A stretch of 64,000 nt of DNA from positions 34,314-98,313 of IMG/VR virus record IMGVR_UViG_3300042446_001732. One strand, written 5' to 3'. The DNA comes from a virus. Below the pieces are notes generated by a model. The model was not told the origin of the DNA, searched no databases, and saw only the letters and a program-made list of their open reading frames with translations. Of this stretch, positions 395 to 55,584 are shown piece by piece; position 1 is the stretch's first letter, and each line of letters starts with the position of its first letter. A program made the position numbers and the translations under genes.

Positions 395-399
395 AATGA

Positions 400-1722
400 T
401 TAACCGCCGTTGTCGGCTCTGGGTTTGAGCAGTTCACTGAGACTCTGACGACTTGGCATAGGCCCACGATCAGTAGTGTTAACTGTAGCTGTGTTGTTCA
501 CAAAGCTGGAACGCAATGTTTTGTTGTCTGGTCCGTTGTTGAGGTCAGTGCGCACACTGTCATCAATTTTAACCCAGCGGATGCCGTCATATCTAAACAA
601 GCGATTGGGCTTGTAGTCCAATCTCAATACATATGCCCCGGCCACGGGATTGGGAGGGAATGCCACACCTGGAGTAACAGGTAATCCATTGGGTGCAATG
701 TCGTCGCTGCCTGTTAGGTAGCCCAGAGTGTAGCCTTCGGCTCGTGGACTAGTGGCTTGACCGCCTTGTGTGCCGTCCACTGTGGTTGTTTCGTCTGCTG
801 TCAAGCTAGCGCCTTCAGCCAGTGCAGGTTGATCATTCAACAGTGTTGGCACAATGTAGAATTTGGTAGTGTCATAGCCACTCAATGGCACTTCAACGTC
901 AGCTTGAGTAAGAATAGCATCATTGATCTCTTCATCTTTGGTGCGGGTGCCTTGCACATCTGCAATGGTAGGCGGTGTGTACTCTTGCCAGTAAGTGGTA
1001 TTGTTGATGGCTATGTCAGCTGGAGTGTTGATCTTGGCCTGATAATAAGTGTTGCCGTAGTTCACAATACTTCCAGCAGGATAGTAATTGCCATTGTCCC
1101 AGATTTGTTCACTCACAAATGGTTTGTTGGTAATAGAATTGTACTCTTGTGCATCAGTGAGAGGCGTTGCCTTGACTCGCCACAAGTGCGGCAACCAAGT
1201 AACAGAAAAACCTTCACTAGCATATGCAGCATCTTGAATCACATAGTACTTAGGCAATGCAGCAGGCAATGCTGAATTTAATGGATTGTAATCTTTCAAG
1301 TTTGGAACTTCAATTACATCACCACTCATGAGTTTGCGACCAAACGAATCAATCATGTCATTGTAATGAAATGTAATAAACAAGGTATCGTTGTTCAAAA
1401 ACAAACCAAATTGAGTCAGGTCAAAGTCCACATCCTGTGTGTTGTACACACCACGCATGACATAGATGTCTGGATCATACACACGATCTCTGTTTTCCAA
1501 CAGCAACAGATCTTGTATGTTTAGTGGACTTAGAGTTTCGTATACTGGCTGAGTTGCGTCGGCATTGCCGCTCAGAGTAGAGTCTTCGCCACCAGTTTGC
1601 GGACCCATGTACTTGTGGACAAACATGTCCAGTCCGCCCACAGTGTACATTTCACTGATTGTGCGGTCCAAGAATTGGTAATCTCGGGTTCGGTTGGGGC
1701 GGAATAGGCTTAGACGTGGCAT
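400..1722 (-). CDS. gp14: Neck / head-completion protein (T4 gp14-like) with C-terminal extension
   Basis: 440-aa ORF. The 'LTQFGLFLNNDTLFITFH...GDVIEVP' segment resembles gp14. It precedes the gp15-like gene and has a TAAATA late motif upstream. Confidence 0.6.
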   Translation of the reverse strand: MPRLSLFRPNRTRDYQFLDRTISEMYTVGGLDMFVHKYMGPQTGGEDSTLSGNADATQPVYETLSPLNIQDLLLLENRDRVYDPDIYVMRGVYNTQDVDFDLTQFGLFLNNDTLFITFHYNDMIDSFGRKLMSGDVIEVPNLKDYNPLNSALPAALPKYYVIQDAAYASEGFSVTWLPHLWRVKATPLTDAQEYNSITNKPFVSEQIWDNGNYYPAGSIVNYGNTYYQAKINTPADIAINNTTYWQEYTPPTIADVQGTRTKDEEINDAILTQADVEVPLSGYDTTKFYIVPTLLNDQPALAEGASLTADETTTVDGTQGGQATSPRAEGYTLGYLTGSDDIAPNGLPVTPGVAFPPNPVAGAYVLRLDYKPNRLFRYDGIRWVKIDDSVRTDLNNGPDNKTLRSSFVNNTATVNTTDRGPMPSRQSLSELLKPRADNGG

Positions 1723-49403: not shown

Positions 49404-50119
49404 TTCAACAGTTGGTAGTCAATGGTTGCAGTTACATGGACATGTACGCACAGGGCAACGGGCATGCGGACCTGGCACAACAACTTGGTATTGCCAATTA
49501 TTCCTGCCTGGCCATTGGTGGCAGTGCAAACTCTCGTATCATACGCAGCACTCTCAAACACAGTTATCAGGCCGCAGTGCCTACATTTTATTTACTGGGC
49601 ATGACATTTCTCAGCAGGCTTGAAATACCTATATTGGGTCAGGATCCCAGCCGTGAGTTTGAGGGCACCTGGACCAATCCTCAGAATCAACAATTTAGAT
49701 CGCAATGGATACCAAACTGGACTGATCGAGATACCAAACAATGGATAGGACTCAAACTCAAAAGTGAATTTCAGAGCATTGTTGATCGACTGGAAGATTT
49801 GATGTACCGTATGTTGAGTTTGCAGGCCAGCCTGACTGCTCGTGGTCATCGTGTGTTGATGTATCAACAAGCAGACAACATTTATCAGGAGTTTATTGAA
49901 GACTCTCGTTTTGAACTTTTTAAAAACAATGTTGGCATCAAAGACGGATTTGTCTGGCGATCAATTGCGTGGCAACACGGACATAAGGTTGCTGCTGTGA
50001 ATTATTCCGAAACTGATCAATATGTGCCACCAGACATGGCTCACCCTTTGCCCGGACATCATTTGATGATCAATACTCATTTGACACAGTATATCAAAGA
50101 TGCTAAAATACTAGCATGA
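49400..50119 (+). CDS. SGNH-like hydrolase or acyltransferase
   Basis: NGCSY, LA.GGSAN.RI.R, C-terminal HP. Confidence 0.6.
   Translation: MIQQLVVNGCSYMDMYAQGNGHADLAQQLGIANYSCLAIGGSANSRIIRSTLKHSYQAAVPTFYLLGMTFLSRLEIPILGQDPSREFEGTWTNPQNQQFRSQWIPNWTDRDTKQWIGLKLKSEFQSIVDRLEDLMYRMLSLQASLTARGHRVLMYQQADNIYQEFIEDSRFELFKNNVGIKDGFVWRSIAWQHGHKVAAVNYSETDQYVPPDMAHPLPGHHLMINTHLTQYIKDAKILA
50081..50109 (+). promoter_or_regulatory. sigma70-type promoter
   Basis: TTGACA-17-TAAAAT with TG; ATG 50116 follows after 6 nt. Confidence 0.65.
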
Positions 50120-50790
50120 CATTTGCCTGTGCCTACTGCAAGAAAACTTTTGTAAAAGAAACGTCTATAGCGGTGCATGTGTGCGAGCCCAAGCGCCGTG
50201 CATTGCAAAAGGACGAACCTGGGGTGAGATTGGGGTTTCAGGCCTATTTGCGATTTTATGAAACCATGCAAGGATCGTCTGGTAACAAGACCTATGAAGA
50301 CTTTGCTGAGTCAGCTTACTATCGAGCCTTTGTGAAGTTTGGGCGTTACTGTGTGGACACCCGCACAATCAATCCAGCTCAGTTCATGTTGTGGCTACTA
50401 AAGGCACAAAAAAAGATTGACTACTGGTGCAGTGACAAGGTCTATACAGAATATTTGTTGTACTACCTGCAGACGGAGGCAGTGGATGATGCTCTGGCTC
50501 GAGCAATTGAATACAGCATGACCTGGCAAGAAAACACAGGCTATCCTGCACATGACTGTTTGCGTTACGGCAATACCAATGCAGCATGTTATGCTGTTAC
50601 ATCAGGAAGAGTAAGTCCCTGGGTGATTTACAACTGCGAGTCAGGCCAGAAGTTTTTGAGCGGTCTGGATCCCACTCAGGTGGCCATGATCTGGAGTTAC
50701 ATCGACAGTGATGCCTGGCAAAAACGTTTTAGAGATCGTCCCGAAGATCAAGCATATGCACAAGAAATTTTAACCCGAGCAGGATGGTAA
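50116..50790 (+). CDS. Hypothetical protein with N-terminal C2HC zinc-finger-like motif
   Basis: F.CAYCKKTF......HVC. Confidence 0.75.
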   Translation: MTFACAYCKKTFVKETSIAVHVCEPKRRALQKDEPGVRLGFQAYLRFYETMQGSSGNKTYEDFAESAYYRAFVKFGRYCVDTRTINPAQFMLWLLKAQKKIDYWCSDKVYTEYLLYYLQTEAVDDALARAIEYSMTWQENTGYPAHDCLRYGNTNAACYAVTSGRVSPWVIYNCESGQKFLSGLDPTQVAMIWSYIDSDAWQKRFRDRPEDQAYAQEILTRAGW

Positions 50791-50791
50791 C

Positions 50792-51142
50792 ATGATTCAA
50801 GGAATAATACCCGGCACAGGGTTAGTAACCACAGGCGGCAGCTCTATGCAGCCGTATATAAGCCCAGGATCGCAGAGTGCTGGAATATTACGGTACAATA
50901 CAAGTTTAAAAAATATAGAAGTGTATGACGGTGTCAGCTGGCTAACGTTGTCCGGCAGCCATACTCAGATAAGTCTTGACGGTCCAACACAGGAAGCTGT
51001 CCAGTGGGTTCGTCGTCGAATGGAACAAGAAAAACGCCTGGAAGAATTGGCCAGACAACATCCTGCTGTGGCTGATGCAGCGGCCGCAGTGGCTCAGGCG
51101 CAGGAACAACTGGACATAGTGACTGCTTTGGTACAACTATGA
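50792..51142 (+). CDS. Hypothetical protein
   Basis: Coupled ORF; 'G.LRYNT...EVYDG..W' and 'LA..HPAV'. Confidence 0.65.
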   Translation: MIQGIIPGTGLVTTGGSSMQPYISPGSQSAGILRYNTSLKNIEVYDGVSWLTLSGSHTQISLDGPTQEAVQWVRRRMEQEKRLEELARQHPAVADAAAAVAQAQEQLDIVTALVQL

Positions 51143-51708
51143 GCGCAGACATTGATATAGACGTGCCCAACAGAGATGTTGTGTTGCAACTGATACAGCA
51201 TGTGCCTGCACAACAAAGCACTGGACGCAAGCACAACTCGGGCATTTATGTCACAGACATTCCGCGGGATGTGGTCAACGGACATGCAGCACTGGATTAC
51301 CAGTCAGCAGAACAACGTGGCTATTTCAAAATAGACCTGTTGAACATGAGTGTTTATAACTTGGTCCACGGCCCCGAACACTATGAAACGTTACTGGCAG
51401 CTACACCGCCTTGGAGTCGACTGTGGACAGATCGTGCCTGGGCCAGTCAACTGGTACACGTGGGCAACTATGCGGACCTGCTGCGAGAAATGAAGCCAGA
51501 CTCAATTCCTAGAATGGCTGCATTTATCAGCATTATTAGGCCGGGCAAAGCTCACCTACAAGGACAACCTTGGGATCAAGTGTTTGCTGAAGTCTGGAAC
51601 GGGGATGATAGTCGGGGCTATACCTTTAAAAAGGCACATGCTATTAGCTACGCTGCCTTGGTGGCCTTGCACATGAATTTACTCAATACGCCGGACCAAG
51701 GTAATTGA
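51139..51708 (+). CDS. Miniature DNA polymerase III alpha (DnaE)-like catalytic core
   Basis: DIDID, KHNSGIYV, GYFKIDLL, IIRPG and GYTFKKAHAISYA occur in DnaE order. Confidence 0.8.
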   Translation: MSADIDIDVPNRDVVLQLIQHVPAQQSTGRKHNSGIYVTDIPRDVVNGHAALDYQSAEQRGYFKIDLLNMSVYNLVHGPEHYETLLAATPPWSRLWTDRAWASQLVHVGNYADLLREMKPDSIPRMAAFISIIRPGKAHLQGQPWDQVFAEVWNGDDSRGYTFKKAHAISYAALVALHMNLLNTPDQGN

Positions 51709-52056
51709 TTTTCGCTTGGACTTTTTGCGGGCAATGTCCATAAGGCTACAAATGGGACCGTGCAAGATTTCCAGGTCCTTGTTGGCAAATGTTCTCAAAG
51801 TAACACGGAATTGATCCCATTCTTTGCGCAGGAAAATGTTTATAGGAATGCTTCTGTTGCTTTCCCACCACCATGTGCCGGCTAGTTCTAAAAATAACAT
51901 CTTGTCAGACTGATCTATCACTGATCCAAAGTCGTAAATAGTTGTCACAATGTCATCACGGTTTTGTACCACTCCTACGTACTCTTGATTTGCGTAAACG
52001 CACAAGGTAATAAAGGGGTACTTTTCCGTTAATTTTTCAAATATGTTATTGCCCAT
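51679..52056 (-). CDS. Hypothetical protein
   Basis: 125-aa ORF; TAAATA 6 nt upstream; WWWESNR.IPI. Confidence 0.75.
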   Translation of the reverse strand: MGNNIFEKLTEKYPFITLCVYANQEYVGVVQNRDDIVTTIYDFGSVIDQSDKMLFLELAGTWWWESNRSIPINIFLRKEWDQFRVTLRTFANKDLEILHGPICSLMDIARKKSKRKSITLVRRIE

Positions 52057-52087: not shown

Positions 52088-53158
52088 ATGTATTCCACCA
52101 CCGTTTATCTTTACCAACAAATTACTCGAGTGTTATTGGTCAACACTGATGGTGGCTACTTCACAGCAAGGTATGACCCAGTGTACGCAAAATCTCTAAC
52201 CATCAACAAAGGCGTGGATAATGTTCTCTTGTTTGAGTTCATTAACCAAGACCAAAAACCTGTAAACATCACAGGTAGCACGTTTGTTTTCCGTGTGATC
52301 AACCAGGCAGGCGATGAGCTGTTGGTACAAAAGGATTGCGAAGTGTTGAGTGCTACTACAGGACGTGTGAAAGTGGTACTAGACAGTACTGACACCATTA
52401 ACATACAAGCACAGCCTGCCAGCTACAGCATCACACGCACAGCCGGTAACTATGCACAAGCTGTGTATGTGGACGCCAACAGCCAAGCTCGTGCAGACTG
52501 CAATATTGTGGACTCTGTGCTGCCACAATTTCAGCCCAGTCAGCCAGTCACGGTGCCTGACATCTACGGCAAGAATCAATTTGTGAGTGCAGCACCCACA
52601 TCTTATCCAGACTGGGCCTTGAACCCGCAACCAATCAACAGCATACAACAAACTGAATTTTATAGTAGTCATATTGAAACCACAGGTGCTGCATTTACCA
52701 CAGTGAAATTTGATCTGGTTCACTTTACCGGAGCAATCAAGGTTCAGGCTGCTGAAAACTATGAGTCAGTTTGGTATGATGTCAGCGAAGCTCGTGAATA
52801 CTTTGATGACACAATCAGCGACTATTTTAACATTGTGGGCTATCATCCGCTGTTGCGTCTAGCATTGAACAACTCCATTGGCTACGGAGCCAGCGGCACA
52901 GTCACAGTGGTCAACGGTGTGGTCACAGGAGTGTCCCTGACCAATTCAGGATATAGCTATGTGGCTGCACCTTATGTTCAGATTCTGGGCAACGGTGCTG
53001 GCGCCATAGTAGAAGCGGTATATGGCGGCAACGGAACAATCAGCCAGGTCAATGTGATTGCTGGAGGTTCTGGATACTTACCAATTCAATTCTTGGGCAG
53101 TCCATCTGCTACTGCGGTTTTCAGCAACGGCAAGATTGAAAACGTTCAATATCGTTGA
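52088..53158 (+). CDS. Virion structural protein (baseplate/fibre-associated)
   Basis: N-terminal 'I.KGVDN.L.F..INQDQKPVNITG' Ig-like segment; C-terminal 'G.GY...P.V' repeats. Confidence 0.6.
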   Translation: MYSTTVYLYQQITRVLLVNTDGGYFTARYDPVYAKSLTINKGVDNVLLFEFINQDQKPVNITGSTFVFRVINQAGDELLVQKDCEVLSATTGRVKVVLDSTDTINIQAQPASYSITRTAGNYAQAVYVDANSQARADCNIVDSVLPQFQPSQPVTVPDIYGKNQFVSAAPTSYPDWALNPQPINSIQQTEFYSSHIETTGAAFTTVKFDLVHFTGAIKVQAAENYESVWYDVSEAREYFDDTISDYFNIVGYHPLLRLALNNSIGYGASGTVTVVNGVVTGVSLTNSGYSYVAAPYVQILGNGAGAIVEAVYGGNGTISQVNVIAGGSGYLPIQFLGSPSATAVFSNGKIENVQYR

Positions 53159-53189: not shown

Positions 53190-54161
53190 ATGCTGGATAT
53201 CTTAGATTACTTACCCGCCAAGCGAAAAGTCAGTCCCAGCGGCTGGATCAGCTTTAATGCGGTATGCTGTGATCACAATGGCAACAGTCCAGATCGACGC
53301 AGTCGCGGCGGCATCAAAACAAACGAACAGGGTTGGAGCTATCATTGCTTCAACTGTGGATACACTGCCAGCTTTATTATTGGACGCACAATAAGTTACA
53401 AGGCTCGGAATCTATTGGGTTGGATGGGTGTTCCAGAACGGGAAATTGACCTAGTTAACTTGGAAAGTCTAAGACATCGAAGCATACACGGACTGCTAGA
53501 AGATCGACAAGCAACCGACACATTGGTTCAGGGAATTGAATTTGAAGAATGGGAATTACCTCCAGGCGCAGAGTTTTTGACAGCAGAATTTGCAGTGCAG
53601 TGGGAGTACTTACAAAGTAGATGTGTGCCATCTGACTTTCCGTTTATGGTGCAGGCTCAGTCCAAGCGACCAGGTGTGATAGTTCCGTTCACATACAACA
53701 ACAAAATTGTGGGCAGTACTGTTCGATTCTTGGACAATCACAATCCTCGATATCTAAACAACATGCAACCAGGTTATGTGTTTGGCGCAGACTTGTTGCA
53801 CAACAACTGGACTCATGTGATAGTGACAGAAGGTATCTTTGACGCACTGTCAATTGGAGGTCTAGCACTCATGCACAACACAGTGAATGATGCTCAAGCA
53901 AAATTGATACGCCGATTGGGCAAGGAAGTTACTGTGGTACCCGACCAGGATTCTGCAGGTATTGAACTGATAGATCGTGCTGTGGAACTGAACTGGGCAG
54001 TAAGCATACCTGCCTGGCCTGCAGACGTCAAAGATGTCAACGATGCTGTGAAGAAATATGGTAGGCTAGGCGCACTGATAACTATCATGCAAGCTAGAGA
54101 AACATCCAAGATCAAAATTGAATTACGAAAGAAACAACTTGTTAAAAGACTACGGAACTGA
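53190..54161 (+). CDS. gp61: DNA primase (gp61/DnaG-like)
   Basis: Zn ribbon CC..YHCFNCG; TOPRIM EGIFDAL, PDQD.AG, KDVND. Confidence 0.88.
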   Translation: MLDILDYLPAKRKVSPSGWISFNAVCCDHNGNSPDRRSRGGIKTNEQGWSYHCFNCGYTASFIIGRTISYKARNLLGWMGVPEREIDLVNLESLRHRSIHGLLEDRQATDTLVQGIEFEEWELPPGAEFLTAEFAVQWEYLQSRCVPSDFPFMVQAQSKRPGVIVPFTYNNKIVGSTVRFLDNHNPRYLNNMQPGYVFGADLLHNNWTHVIVTEGIFDALSIGGLALMHNTVNDAQAKLIRRLGKEVTVVPDQDSAGIELIDRAVELNWAVSIPAWPADVKDVNDAVKKYGRLGALITIMQARETSKIKIELRKKQLVKRLRN

Positions 54162-55584
54162 TGTACAACGACTGTTCCTGGAGATGATACTTCAGGATGC
54201 AGAAAGTTATGTTCGTGTACAGAACATCTACAATCCAGAAAACTTTGATCGTAGTGTAAGACCTGCGGCCGAGTTTATCAAGACACACAGTGTGGACCAC
54301 GGCACCTTGCCCACTGCTGCACAGATCGCTGCAACCACAGGGATCAAACTACAGCACCTGGACGAATTCAATGAAGGACATCATGCCTGGTTCATGGAGG
54401 AGTTTGAAAACTTTACCAAACGTCAGGAACTGGAACGTGCTATTTTGAAAGCAGCTGACTTGCTGGAAAAGGGTGACTATGATCCTGTGGAAAAACTGAT
54501 CAAGGATGCTGTGCAGATCAGTCTAACCAAGGACATGGGCACGGACTATTTTGATGATCCCAGTGCTCGTATCAACAAGTACTTCAATGCTGGAGGACAG
54601 GTTAGCACAGGATGGCCACAAATGGATCGATTGTTGTATGGTGGATTCAGTCGTGGAGAGCTGAACATTTTTGCAGGCGGATCAGGCTCGGGCAAAAGTC
54701 TTGTGATGATGAACATTGCACTAAACTGGTTGCAGCAGGGTCTAAGTGGTGTATACATCACCCTGGAACTTTCTGAAGAGCTAACCAGTTTACGAAGTGA
54801 TGCCATGCTGACCAGCATGAGCACCAAAGAGATCCGCAAGGACATTGAGACCACAGCACTCAAGGTCAAAATGATTCAAAAGAAGTCTGGACAGTATCGT
54901 GTGAAGGGACTGCCGGCACAAAGCAATGTGAATGACATTCGTGCTTACTTGAAAGAAGTGCAGATACAAACAGGTATCCGGGTGGACTTTATTATGGTAG
55001 ACTACCTGGACTTGGTCATGCCTGTGAGTGCCAAAGTCAGTCCCAACGACTTGTTTGTGAAAGACAAGTATGTATCGGAAGAACTGCGTAACCTGGCCAA
55101 AGAACTAGGTATCCTGATGGTAACTGCAAGTCAGTTGAATCGAAGTGCTGTGGAAGAAATTGAATTTGATCACAGCCATATTTCAGGTGGTATCAGCAAA
55201 ATCAACACAGCAGACAATGTGTTTGGTATCTTTACAAGTCGTGCCATGAAAGAGCGTGGCAAGTATCAGATACAATGTATGAAATCTCGAAGCTCGACCG
55301 GCGTTGGTCAAAAAATTGATTTGGAGTATAACATTGAAACCATGCGTATTACTGACGAAGGCGGGGACGAAAACGGTTATAACAAACCACAAAGTTCAAT
55401 CATGGACAGTATCAAGGCCAAGAGCCAGGTTGTTGCAAGCTCCGACGCCACTTGGGCTGTCCCCACAGGCGGCACACATGTCTGGGACAAGCCCATGGTC
55501 AAACACGAAGATGTTGCCAAGGTCAGCGGCGACGTTCAAAGTGCCAAGCTAAAACAAATGCTCGGCAAGATCAAATCAGGTTAA
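54139..55584 (+). CDS. gp41: Replicative DNA helicase (gp41/DnaB-like)
   Basis: GGSGSGKS, TLEL, VDYLD, TASQLNR, KSR; probable TTG start at 54139. Confidence 0.92.
   Translation: MLKDYGTDVQRLFLEMILQDAESYVRVQNIYNPENFDRSVRPAAEFIKTHSVDHGTLPTAAQIAATTGIKLQHLDEFNEGHHAWFMEEFENFTKRQELERAILKAADLLEKGDYDPVEKLIKDAVQISLTKDMGTDYFDDPSARINKYFNAGGQVSTGWPQMDRLLYGGFSRGELNIFAGGSGSGKSLVMMNIALNWLQQGLSGVYITLELSEELTSLRSDAMLTSMSTKEIRKDIETTALKVKMIQKKSGQYRVKGLPAQSNVNDIRAYLKEVQIQTGIRVDFIMVDYLDLVMPVSAKVSPNDLFVKDKYVSEELRNLAKELGILMVTASQLNRSAVEEIEFDHSHISGGISKINTADNVFGIFTSRAMKERGKYQIQCMKSRSSTGVGQKIDLEYNIETMRITDEGGDENGYNKPQSSIMDSIKAKSQVVASSDATWAVPTGGTHVWDKPMVKHEDVAKVSGDVQSAKLKQMLGKIKSG

Follow-up and report, generated by a model that had tools for sequence, protein, structure and literature searches.

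The 189-aa ORF at positions 51139..51708 (+) probably encodes the C-terminal unit of a split, minimal family C DNA polymerase core, in which two non-covalently associated chains would rebuild the active site and work as a low-processivity polymerase beside a family B replicase. The ORF lies in the 64,000-nt stretch of DNA analysed here (hereafter, the window), which comprises bases 34314-98313 of a 98,313-bp IMG/VR contig. With a completeness of ~29% as estimated by CheckV, this contig represents only part of a phage genome of ~300-350 kb. The assignment of the gene as the C-terminal, Mg2+-/template-binding half (C unit) of a minimal DNA polymerase III (Pol III) alpha draws on its membership in phrog_11778, on profile searches against the PDB, on an AlphaFold2 model and its structural alignment with VIA-align, and on dN/dS values. 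The original prediction, made from the nucleotide sequence of the window, had read the gene as a compact, non-decayed DnaE core and as one half of a split enzyme, and our results support this first reading. The idea of a split mini-DnaE is not new, since a minimal split DNA polymerase III alpha has been described from sequence in group 2.2 jumbo phages (Iyer, Anantharaman, Krishnan, Burroughs and Aravind, 2021, Viruses 13:63, PMC7824862), and the window gene is another, divergent environmental member of the enzyme described in that study.

A compact ORF carrying the motifs of family C polymerases

The ORF is intact and its start ATG shares bases with the TGA stop of the preceding ORF (ATGA). 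The five DnaE motifs listed in the original prediction were all located in the protein in the same order, namely DIDID (residues 4-8), KH..G..V (residues 31-38), G.FK.D.L (residues 61-68), RPG (residues 134-136) and GY.F.K.H...YA (residues 160-172), and they are conserved across the phrog_11778 homologues. Thus, palm strands carrying D4/D6/D8 and K64/D66 are followed by a reduced finger module that contains R134-P135-G136-K137 and K164/H167. The chain begins three residues ahead of the DxD motif, does not hold a complete single-chain palm and is missing the GS nucleotide-binding loop.

We compared the protein with profile collections and found a match to phrog_11778 (annotated as “DNA polymerase”; E 1.1e-49) in which residues 3-183 covered profile positions 7-192 of 197. 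A second profile, phrog_405 (DnaE-like, 1190 positions), was weakly matched by residues 112-154. The C unit alone scored below the Pfam and NCBIfam thresholds, and it gave no match to PF07733 (DNA_pol3_alpha; gathering score, 23.9 bits) at either E ≤ 0.1 or E ≤ 10. The family is nonetheless large. A search of 1.8 billion cluster representatives retrieved 341 clusters at 50% identity (E ≤ 1e-3), and 5710 matches at E ≤ 1e-3 were present among the 90%-identity clusters of similar length. The window C unit is 59% identical to the nearest 50%-identity cluster representative and 44% identical to its PA5oct counterpart. In a diverse alignment of 81 full-length homologues (183-219 aa; 80 near-full-length representatives were used), K64, D66 and P135 were invariant and D4, D6, D8, H32, G35, R134, K137, K164 and H167 were conserved in at least 90% of the sequences.

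The C unit resembles the palm and proximal fingers of Pol III alpha

A single-sequence PDB search with the C unit returned chance-level matches alone (E ~0.4). The family profile, when compared with the PDB, matched exclusively Pol III alpha chains (E. coli, Thermus and Mycobacterium), with E values from 3e-6 to 1e-4. In the resulting alignment, K64/D66 correspond to E. coli K553/D555, the RPG motif to residues 639-641, and K164/H167 to K758/H760. An AlphaFold2 model of the C unit, built from the 81-homologue alignment, reached a pLDDT of 95.3 and a pTM of 0.88. Foldseek comparison of this model with the PDB gave family C polymerases as all of the best 16 matches (top E 1.5e-3; probability 0.95-1.00 for the best eight). 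VIA-align aligned 15 family C entries at Z scores of 5.9-9.8 over 181-189 of the 189 residues, and the next unrelated fold appeared at Z 3.5. The aligned ranges were 399..784 in E. coli, 460..841 in Thermus (Taq) and 970..1303 in PolC. The relationship to DnaE that the original prediction had drawn from the motifs was hence recovered in two ways, as a palm match with Z scores of up to 9.8 and as PDB profile matches consisting solely of Pol III alpha.

According to the predicted structure, the C unit is the DnaE palm from the DxD strand onward together with the proximal fingers. The DnaE thumb, which is located between the DxD and H..G.V strands, and ~100 finger residues are replaced by short connectors. 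The aligned range also indicates that the PHP domain, the thumb, the distal fingers, the clamp-binding motif, the HhH and the OB domain are all missing from the chain, in which zero Pfam domains were recognised. Because the C unit aligns inside E. coli 399..784 and the protein is short, the absence of PHP, GRGS, thumb, HhH and OB elements follows directly, and the original description of a protein with reduced thumb and fingers that lacks PHP, GRGS, HhH and OB parts proved correct.

The four relatives tested also encode a family B polymerase

A tblastn search of 50,697 phage records with the C unit matched 96 records; of the listed ones, almost all belong to jumbo phages and one is a 94-kb record. 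The matches listed included the PA5oct/Wroclawvirus group (44% identity), RaK2/121Q/PBECO4-like phages (~35% identity), Atu_ph07, Sinorhizobium phage Phosso, XaC1, SCTP-2 and a Vibrio phage. The annotation “DNA polymerase” or “DNA polymerase III alpha” is attached to the gene in several of the 96 records. Each of the four relatives tested encodes a family B polymerase (825-918 aa; PF00136 above the cut-off), and two of these relatives are 97-100% complete. The same PF00136 search gave no match on the 98-kb contig, which is ~29% complete. The family B polymerase envisaged in the original prediction was thus found in the relatives and not on the contig itself, and from these relatives this phage may be expected to encode one.

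The C-unit gene lies in a conserved replication block

Examination of the surrounding genes revealed a block with the order 224-aa C2H2-like protein, variable insert, C unit, antisense 125-aa ORF, structural-like protein, primase and DnaB helicase. This block is kept from the clade of the window to PA5oct-like phages and Phosso, although the structural-like protein was not detected in Phosso. The first gene (50116..50790, +) encodes a 224-aa protein of phrog_11058, a virus-only family, with an N-terminal C2H2-like zinc finger. No Pfam or NCBIfam match was found for this protein, and the atlas clusters to which it belongs carry the name C2H2-type and contain viral members alone (100%). Since the gene is located upstream of the C unit in 75 of the 75 close relatives with enough flanking sequence, and also in Paride and Phosso, its product is, by association only, a candidate accessory factor. 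Between this gene and the C unit, the window carries a variable 116-aa ORF (50792..51142, +) that does not belong to the polymerase and whose PHROG matches, to the N-termini of uncharacterised 300-360-aa phage families, are weak (E of 3e-5 at best). This ORF occurs in 62 of the 75 relatives, at a variable distance, and is missing from Paride and Phosso. The distance from the C2H2 gene to the C unit varies among relatives (loci L013-L092), from ~0 in Paride and several others, where the two genes adjoin, to ~2.8 kb; the interval resembles a hot spot at which small accessory genes are inserted.

Downstream of the C unit and on the opposite strand, an antisense ORF of 125 aa (51679..52056, -; phrog_11637, E 7e-30) overlaps by 30 nt, 3′ end to 3′ end, with the C-unit gene. 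This ORF occurs directly downstream in 81 of 82 loci, including those of Paride, PA5oct-like phages and Phosso. It is followed by a gene for a 356-aa protein (52088-53158, +) whose C-terminal 70 residues have PHROG matches to baseplate-wedge and virion structural proteins; a structural-like protein is therefore placed inside the replication block, with the C unit on one side and the primase on the other. The primase gene, two genes downstream of the C unit, encodes a Toprim DNA primase (53190..54161, +; Pfam Toprim_2/Toprim_3; phrog_47, E 1e-29) and is syntenic in Paride and Phosso. The last gene encodes a DnaB-like replicative helicase (54118..55584, +) with a Walker A motif (GSGKS), and the syntenic genes of Paride and Phosso are annotated as DnaB-like helicases. 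Note that the DnaB ORF as listed starts at a TTG codon located 44 nt within the end of the primase gene, and that translation may in fact begin at an ATG further downstream.

The genomic and structural data bear on what kind of reaction the enzyme might catalyse. The Pol-beta fold serves many non-polymerase transferases, and the two-piece core could act as another nucleotidyltransferase, devoted to template-independent tailing, RNA or primer handling, DNA modification or the synthesis of a counter-defence signalling nucleotide. Such a function would agree with the loss of all the elements with which DnaE holds the primer-template (thumb, clamp-binding, HhH and OB) and with the complete family B replicase that these phages, judging from the relatives, already possess. 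We nevertheless consider it unlikely, because the finger motifs that align with E. coli 639-641 and K758/H760 are near-invariant, the closest structures are solely replicative family C polymerases and the gene resides inside a primase/helicase block conserved as far as PA5oct and Phosso.

A distant gene encodes the GRGS half of the palm in relatives

When two complete relatives were searched with phrog_405, the C unit matched at profile positions ~579-809 and a separate, distant ORF matched at positions 362-436. This second protein (N unit) is 169 aa long in Paride and 177 aa long in Phosso, and corresponds to phrog_11127 (E 1e-46 to 1e-50). The partner N units scored 26.0 and 35.5 bits with PF07733, above the 23.9-bit gathering cut-off. 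A G.GRGSS motif is invariant in N units, whose C-terminal end reads ...(D/E)EF(L/I)(K/R/N). Relative to DnaE, N units contain the palm helices situated ahead of the C unit, along with the GRGS loop that binds the nucleotide. Comparison of the N-unit profile with the PDB again returned Pol III alpha exclusively (E 0.007-0.12). The claim that the 189-aa protein is one half of a split enzyme in need of a GRGS-carrying partner is thus sustained by the existence, in relatives, of a ~170-aa protein with an invariant G.GRGSS motif.

The N-unit profile stops at E. coli residue 393 (Thermus (Taq) 455), the equivalent of FERFLN, and the C unit begins, as M-x-x-DIDID, at about E. coli residue 399, so that the end of the N unit is about 5-6 residues short of the C-unit start and its DxD motif. 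Since one unit ends at ~393 and the other starts at ~399, these alignments place the cut within the Pol-beta-fold palm, in the short loop that connects the GRGS helix region to the DxD strand.

The genes of the N and C units are separated by ~44 kb in Paride and by ~224 kb in Phosso. The nearest long relative is a 209-kb contig, on which the two genes lie ~98 kb apart and the C unit shares 77% identity with that of the window. The GRGS fragment anticipated in the original prediction was therefore present in Paride, in Phosso and in the 209-kb relative, and was not detected on the ~29%-complete contig. A six-frame scan of the 98-kb contig for GRGS found it solely in a 591-aa ORF without DnaE-like context (contig position ~6630, within the 34 kb upstream of the window). 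Searches of the same contig, ~29% complete, with PF07733, phrog_405, phrog_11127 and the Paride N unit retrieved either the C unit itself or nothing, and 12.6 kb of the contig remain beyond the C unit. Because the contig is a fragment, this absence is uninformative, and we infer from the relatives that the N unit of this phage is encoded in the part of the genome not covered by the 98-kb contig.

We also considered the products of the genes starting at 50116 and 50792 as the GRGS half and rejected both, as neither contains GRGS or shows a DnaE-like match and the 116-aa ORF is variably present. The earlier proposal of these two neighbours as co-folding partners did not hold, given that the true partner gene is distant (44-224 kb in relatives) and that neither neighbour is the GRGS half.

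Two further observations were made on the N unit. Its PHROG matches include phrog_13169 (463 positions), phrog_11165 (782 positions) and phrog_7513, in which the GRGS palm segment occupies differing positions. phrog_13169 and phrog_11165 have the GRGS palm segment in common with the N unit (E 5e-7 to 6e-4), whereas they are longer and have other domain complements. The profile matches suggest that these three families (461-782 positions) may represent further truncated or differently split phage family C polymerases. In addition, a gene for a GroES-like co-chaperonin is located just downstream of the N-unit gene in three distant clades (L093:2256-2657, L004:2081-2407 and L003:2226-2576); one small gene lies between the N-unit gene and the GroES-like gene in Paride and Phosso.

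The N and C units co-occur and are naturally fused in one clade

Among the phage records, the N unit was found in 95 and the C unit in 96, with a near-identical host distribution. The C unit was also present in five of five long IMG/VR genomes that had been picked for their N unit. Moreover, the metagenomic clusters P0157, P0272 and P0273 encode proteins of 375-376 aa that consist of the N unit, a linker of ~10 residues and the C unit. In P0157, a PF07733 match of 59.6 bits runs over the N/C junction, and in a BLASTP alignment residues 74-205 are collinear, through the junction, with positions 283-411 of a DnaE fragment from a bacterium (E 1e-12). A search of longer proteins for fused relatives of the window protein found none, and the fused forms are confined to one small clade. 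In a quick tree (supports of 80-94), this clade is nested among C units that stand alone, which hints that the fusion may be secondary rather than ancestral, the tree being unrooted and the direction undecided by it. The structural model of a natural fused form had a pLDDT of 62 and a palm core of low confidence, with residues 142-152 and 181-270 mostly below 50, and the underlying alignment was shallow over the C part.

These results weigh heavily against the view that the two proteins have nothing to do with each other. The 189-aa protein might be a replisome accessory that binds DNA or has a regulatory role, either alone or with the 224-aa C2H2 protein, its aspartates being merely metal-binding or structural and the GRGS protein being independent. 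The 44 to 224 kb between the N and C genes, which are not co-transcribed, and the strict conservation of the C2H2 neighbour (75/75 relatives) would be accounted for by this explanation, but the near-perfect co-occurrence (95 versus 96 genomes and 5/5 long contigs) and the natural fusions, which keep the units in DnaE order, would not. Furthermore, the break falls within one structural domain, and thus neither unit has a complete Pol-beta palm. For these reasons, an accessory role of this kind appears very improbable, and a shared active site remains the explanation that we favour.

The C unit is under strong purifying selection

In 81 close IMG/VR relatives, every ORF was intact, with lengths of 184-194 aa, and the catalytic and finger residues were all invariant. 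Pairwise dN/dS values in this set had a median of 0.097 (interquartile range, 0.074-0.118), which indicates strong purifying selection. The original prediction had regarded the gene as something other than a decayed pseudogene and had named variation in length and loss of the catalytic Asp residues among homologues as the signs of a decaying fragment. With a dN/dS of ~0.10, homologues of uniform length (183-219 aa) and catalytic Asp residues retained, that view was confirmed. The idea that the 189-aa protein is a decaying remnant of a full-length phage DnaE, to which a length of one sixth of cellular DnaE and scores below the Pfam thresholds might lend themselves, has practically no probability left and is refuted by the selection and length data (median dN/dS of 0.097, 81/81 close relatives intact with invariant catalytic residues, and thousands of uniform-length homologues), as well as by a fold predicted at high confidence.

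A model for the assembly and role of the split polymerase

In the split polymerase that we propose, the N and C chains would dock without a covalent link and build a single Pol-beta-fold active site. No split-intein halves were found at the break, that is, at the end of the N unit or at the start of the C unit, and the fused forms bridge the gap with just the ~10 residues of their linker; assembly is presumed to be non-covalent because no leftover sequence is available for an intein. The GRGS motif of the N unit would hold the triphosphate and the Asp triad of the C unit would hold two Mg2+ ions. The resulting heterodimer would be a template-directed DNA polymerase, whose processivity is expected to be low since the thumb and the clamp-binding, HhH, OB and PHP parts are all missing. 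A thumb-less core without duplex-binding domains might even be non-templated as well as non-processive. Alongside the family B replicase, the heterodimer could carry out primer extension, gap filling or repair, a role suggested by the position of the gene in a primase/DnaB/recombination gene block.

A more specific version of this model, which we put forward as a speculation with rather low odds, is that the mini Pol III is a dedicated primer-extension or gap-filling enzyme physically tied to the primase-helicase. The part of the missing thumb and DNA-binding domains would be taken by the strictly co-located C2H2 protein, possibly together with the ~90 residues at the start of the N unit, which are unique to it, and the enzyme would hand over to the family B replicase. 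Such a hand-off would be analogous to those from DnaE to PolC in Bacillus and from Pol alpha to Pol delta.

Comparison with known family C polymerases

The C unit has in common with bacterial DnaE and PolC the Pol-beta-fold palm, the DxD...D triad, the catalytic Lys and the RPG and KSH finger motifs. It differs from them in having about one sixth of their length, in being devoid of PHP, thumb, distal fingers, beta-clamp motif, HhH and OB, and in that its palm is shared between two polypeptides, with the cut located after the GRGS helix and before the DxD strand. Cyanobacterial DnaE is likewise encoded by two distant genes, dnaE-n and dnaE-c, whose products restore the full-length enzyme covalently by split-intein trans-splicing. 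Like that system, the phage enzyme is a family C polymerase made from two distant genes, but its break is at a different site.

The closest known system is the split Pol III alpha of jumbo phages, which consists of an N-terminal NTP-binding protein and a C-terminal Mg2+-/DNA-template-binding protein encoded by distant genes (PMC7824862, sections 3.4.1 and 3.5). In that study, the split enzyme is reported to accompany a family B polymerase and is discussed as a model for ancestral replication enzymes (PMC7824862). The window gene belongs to the same family (phrog_11778) and, as in the published enzyme, the Mg-/template-binding unit stands alone, without PHP, OB and clamp-binding parts. It also comes from the same phage group (PA5oct, RaK2/121Q-like phages and Atu_ph07), with relatives that carry a distant N unit and a family B polymerase. 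We see no essential difference between the two, other than that the window member is divergent and that its contig is incomplete and without an N unit. The fused 375-376-aa forms, the conserved C2H2 neighbour and the antisense ORF are not mentioned in sections 3.4.1 and 3.5 of that paper (PMC7824862). Our literature search found no published biochemical assay of the activity of the enzyme or of heterodimer formation, and the split enzyme goes unmentioned in the PA5oct omics paper and in a 2026 jumbo-phage review.

What the window contributes is, accordingly, supporting detail on a known enzyme, in terms of selection, structure, natural fusions and conserved neighbours. Family C polymerases are otherwise large, bacterial and single-chain. 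Abundant among environmental jumbo phages, with thousands of database clusters, a two-chain version of ~360 residues would delimit the minimal catalytic unit of family C and, as a polymerase whose active site is made from two polypeptides, would be a rarity. If the primer-extension reading is true, the single-chain fusions of 375 aa would be the smallest natural family C polymerases.
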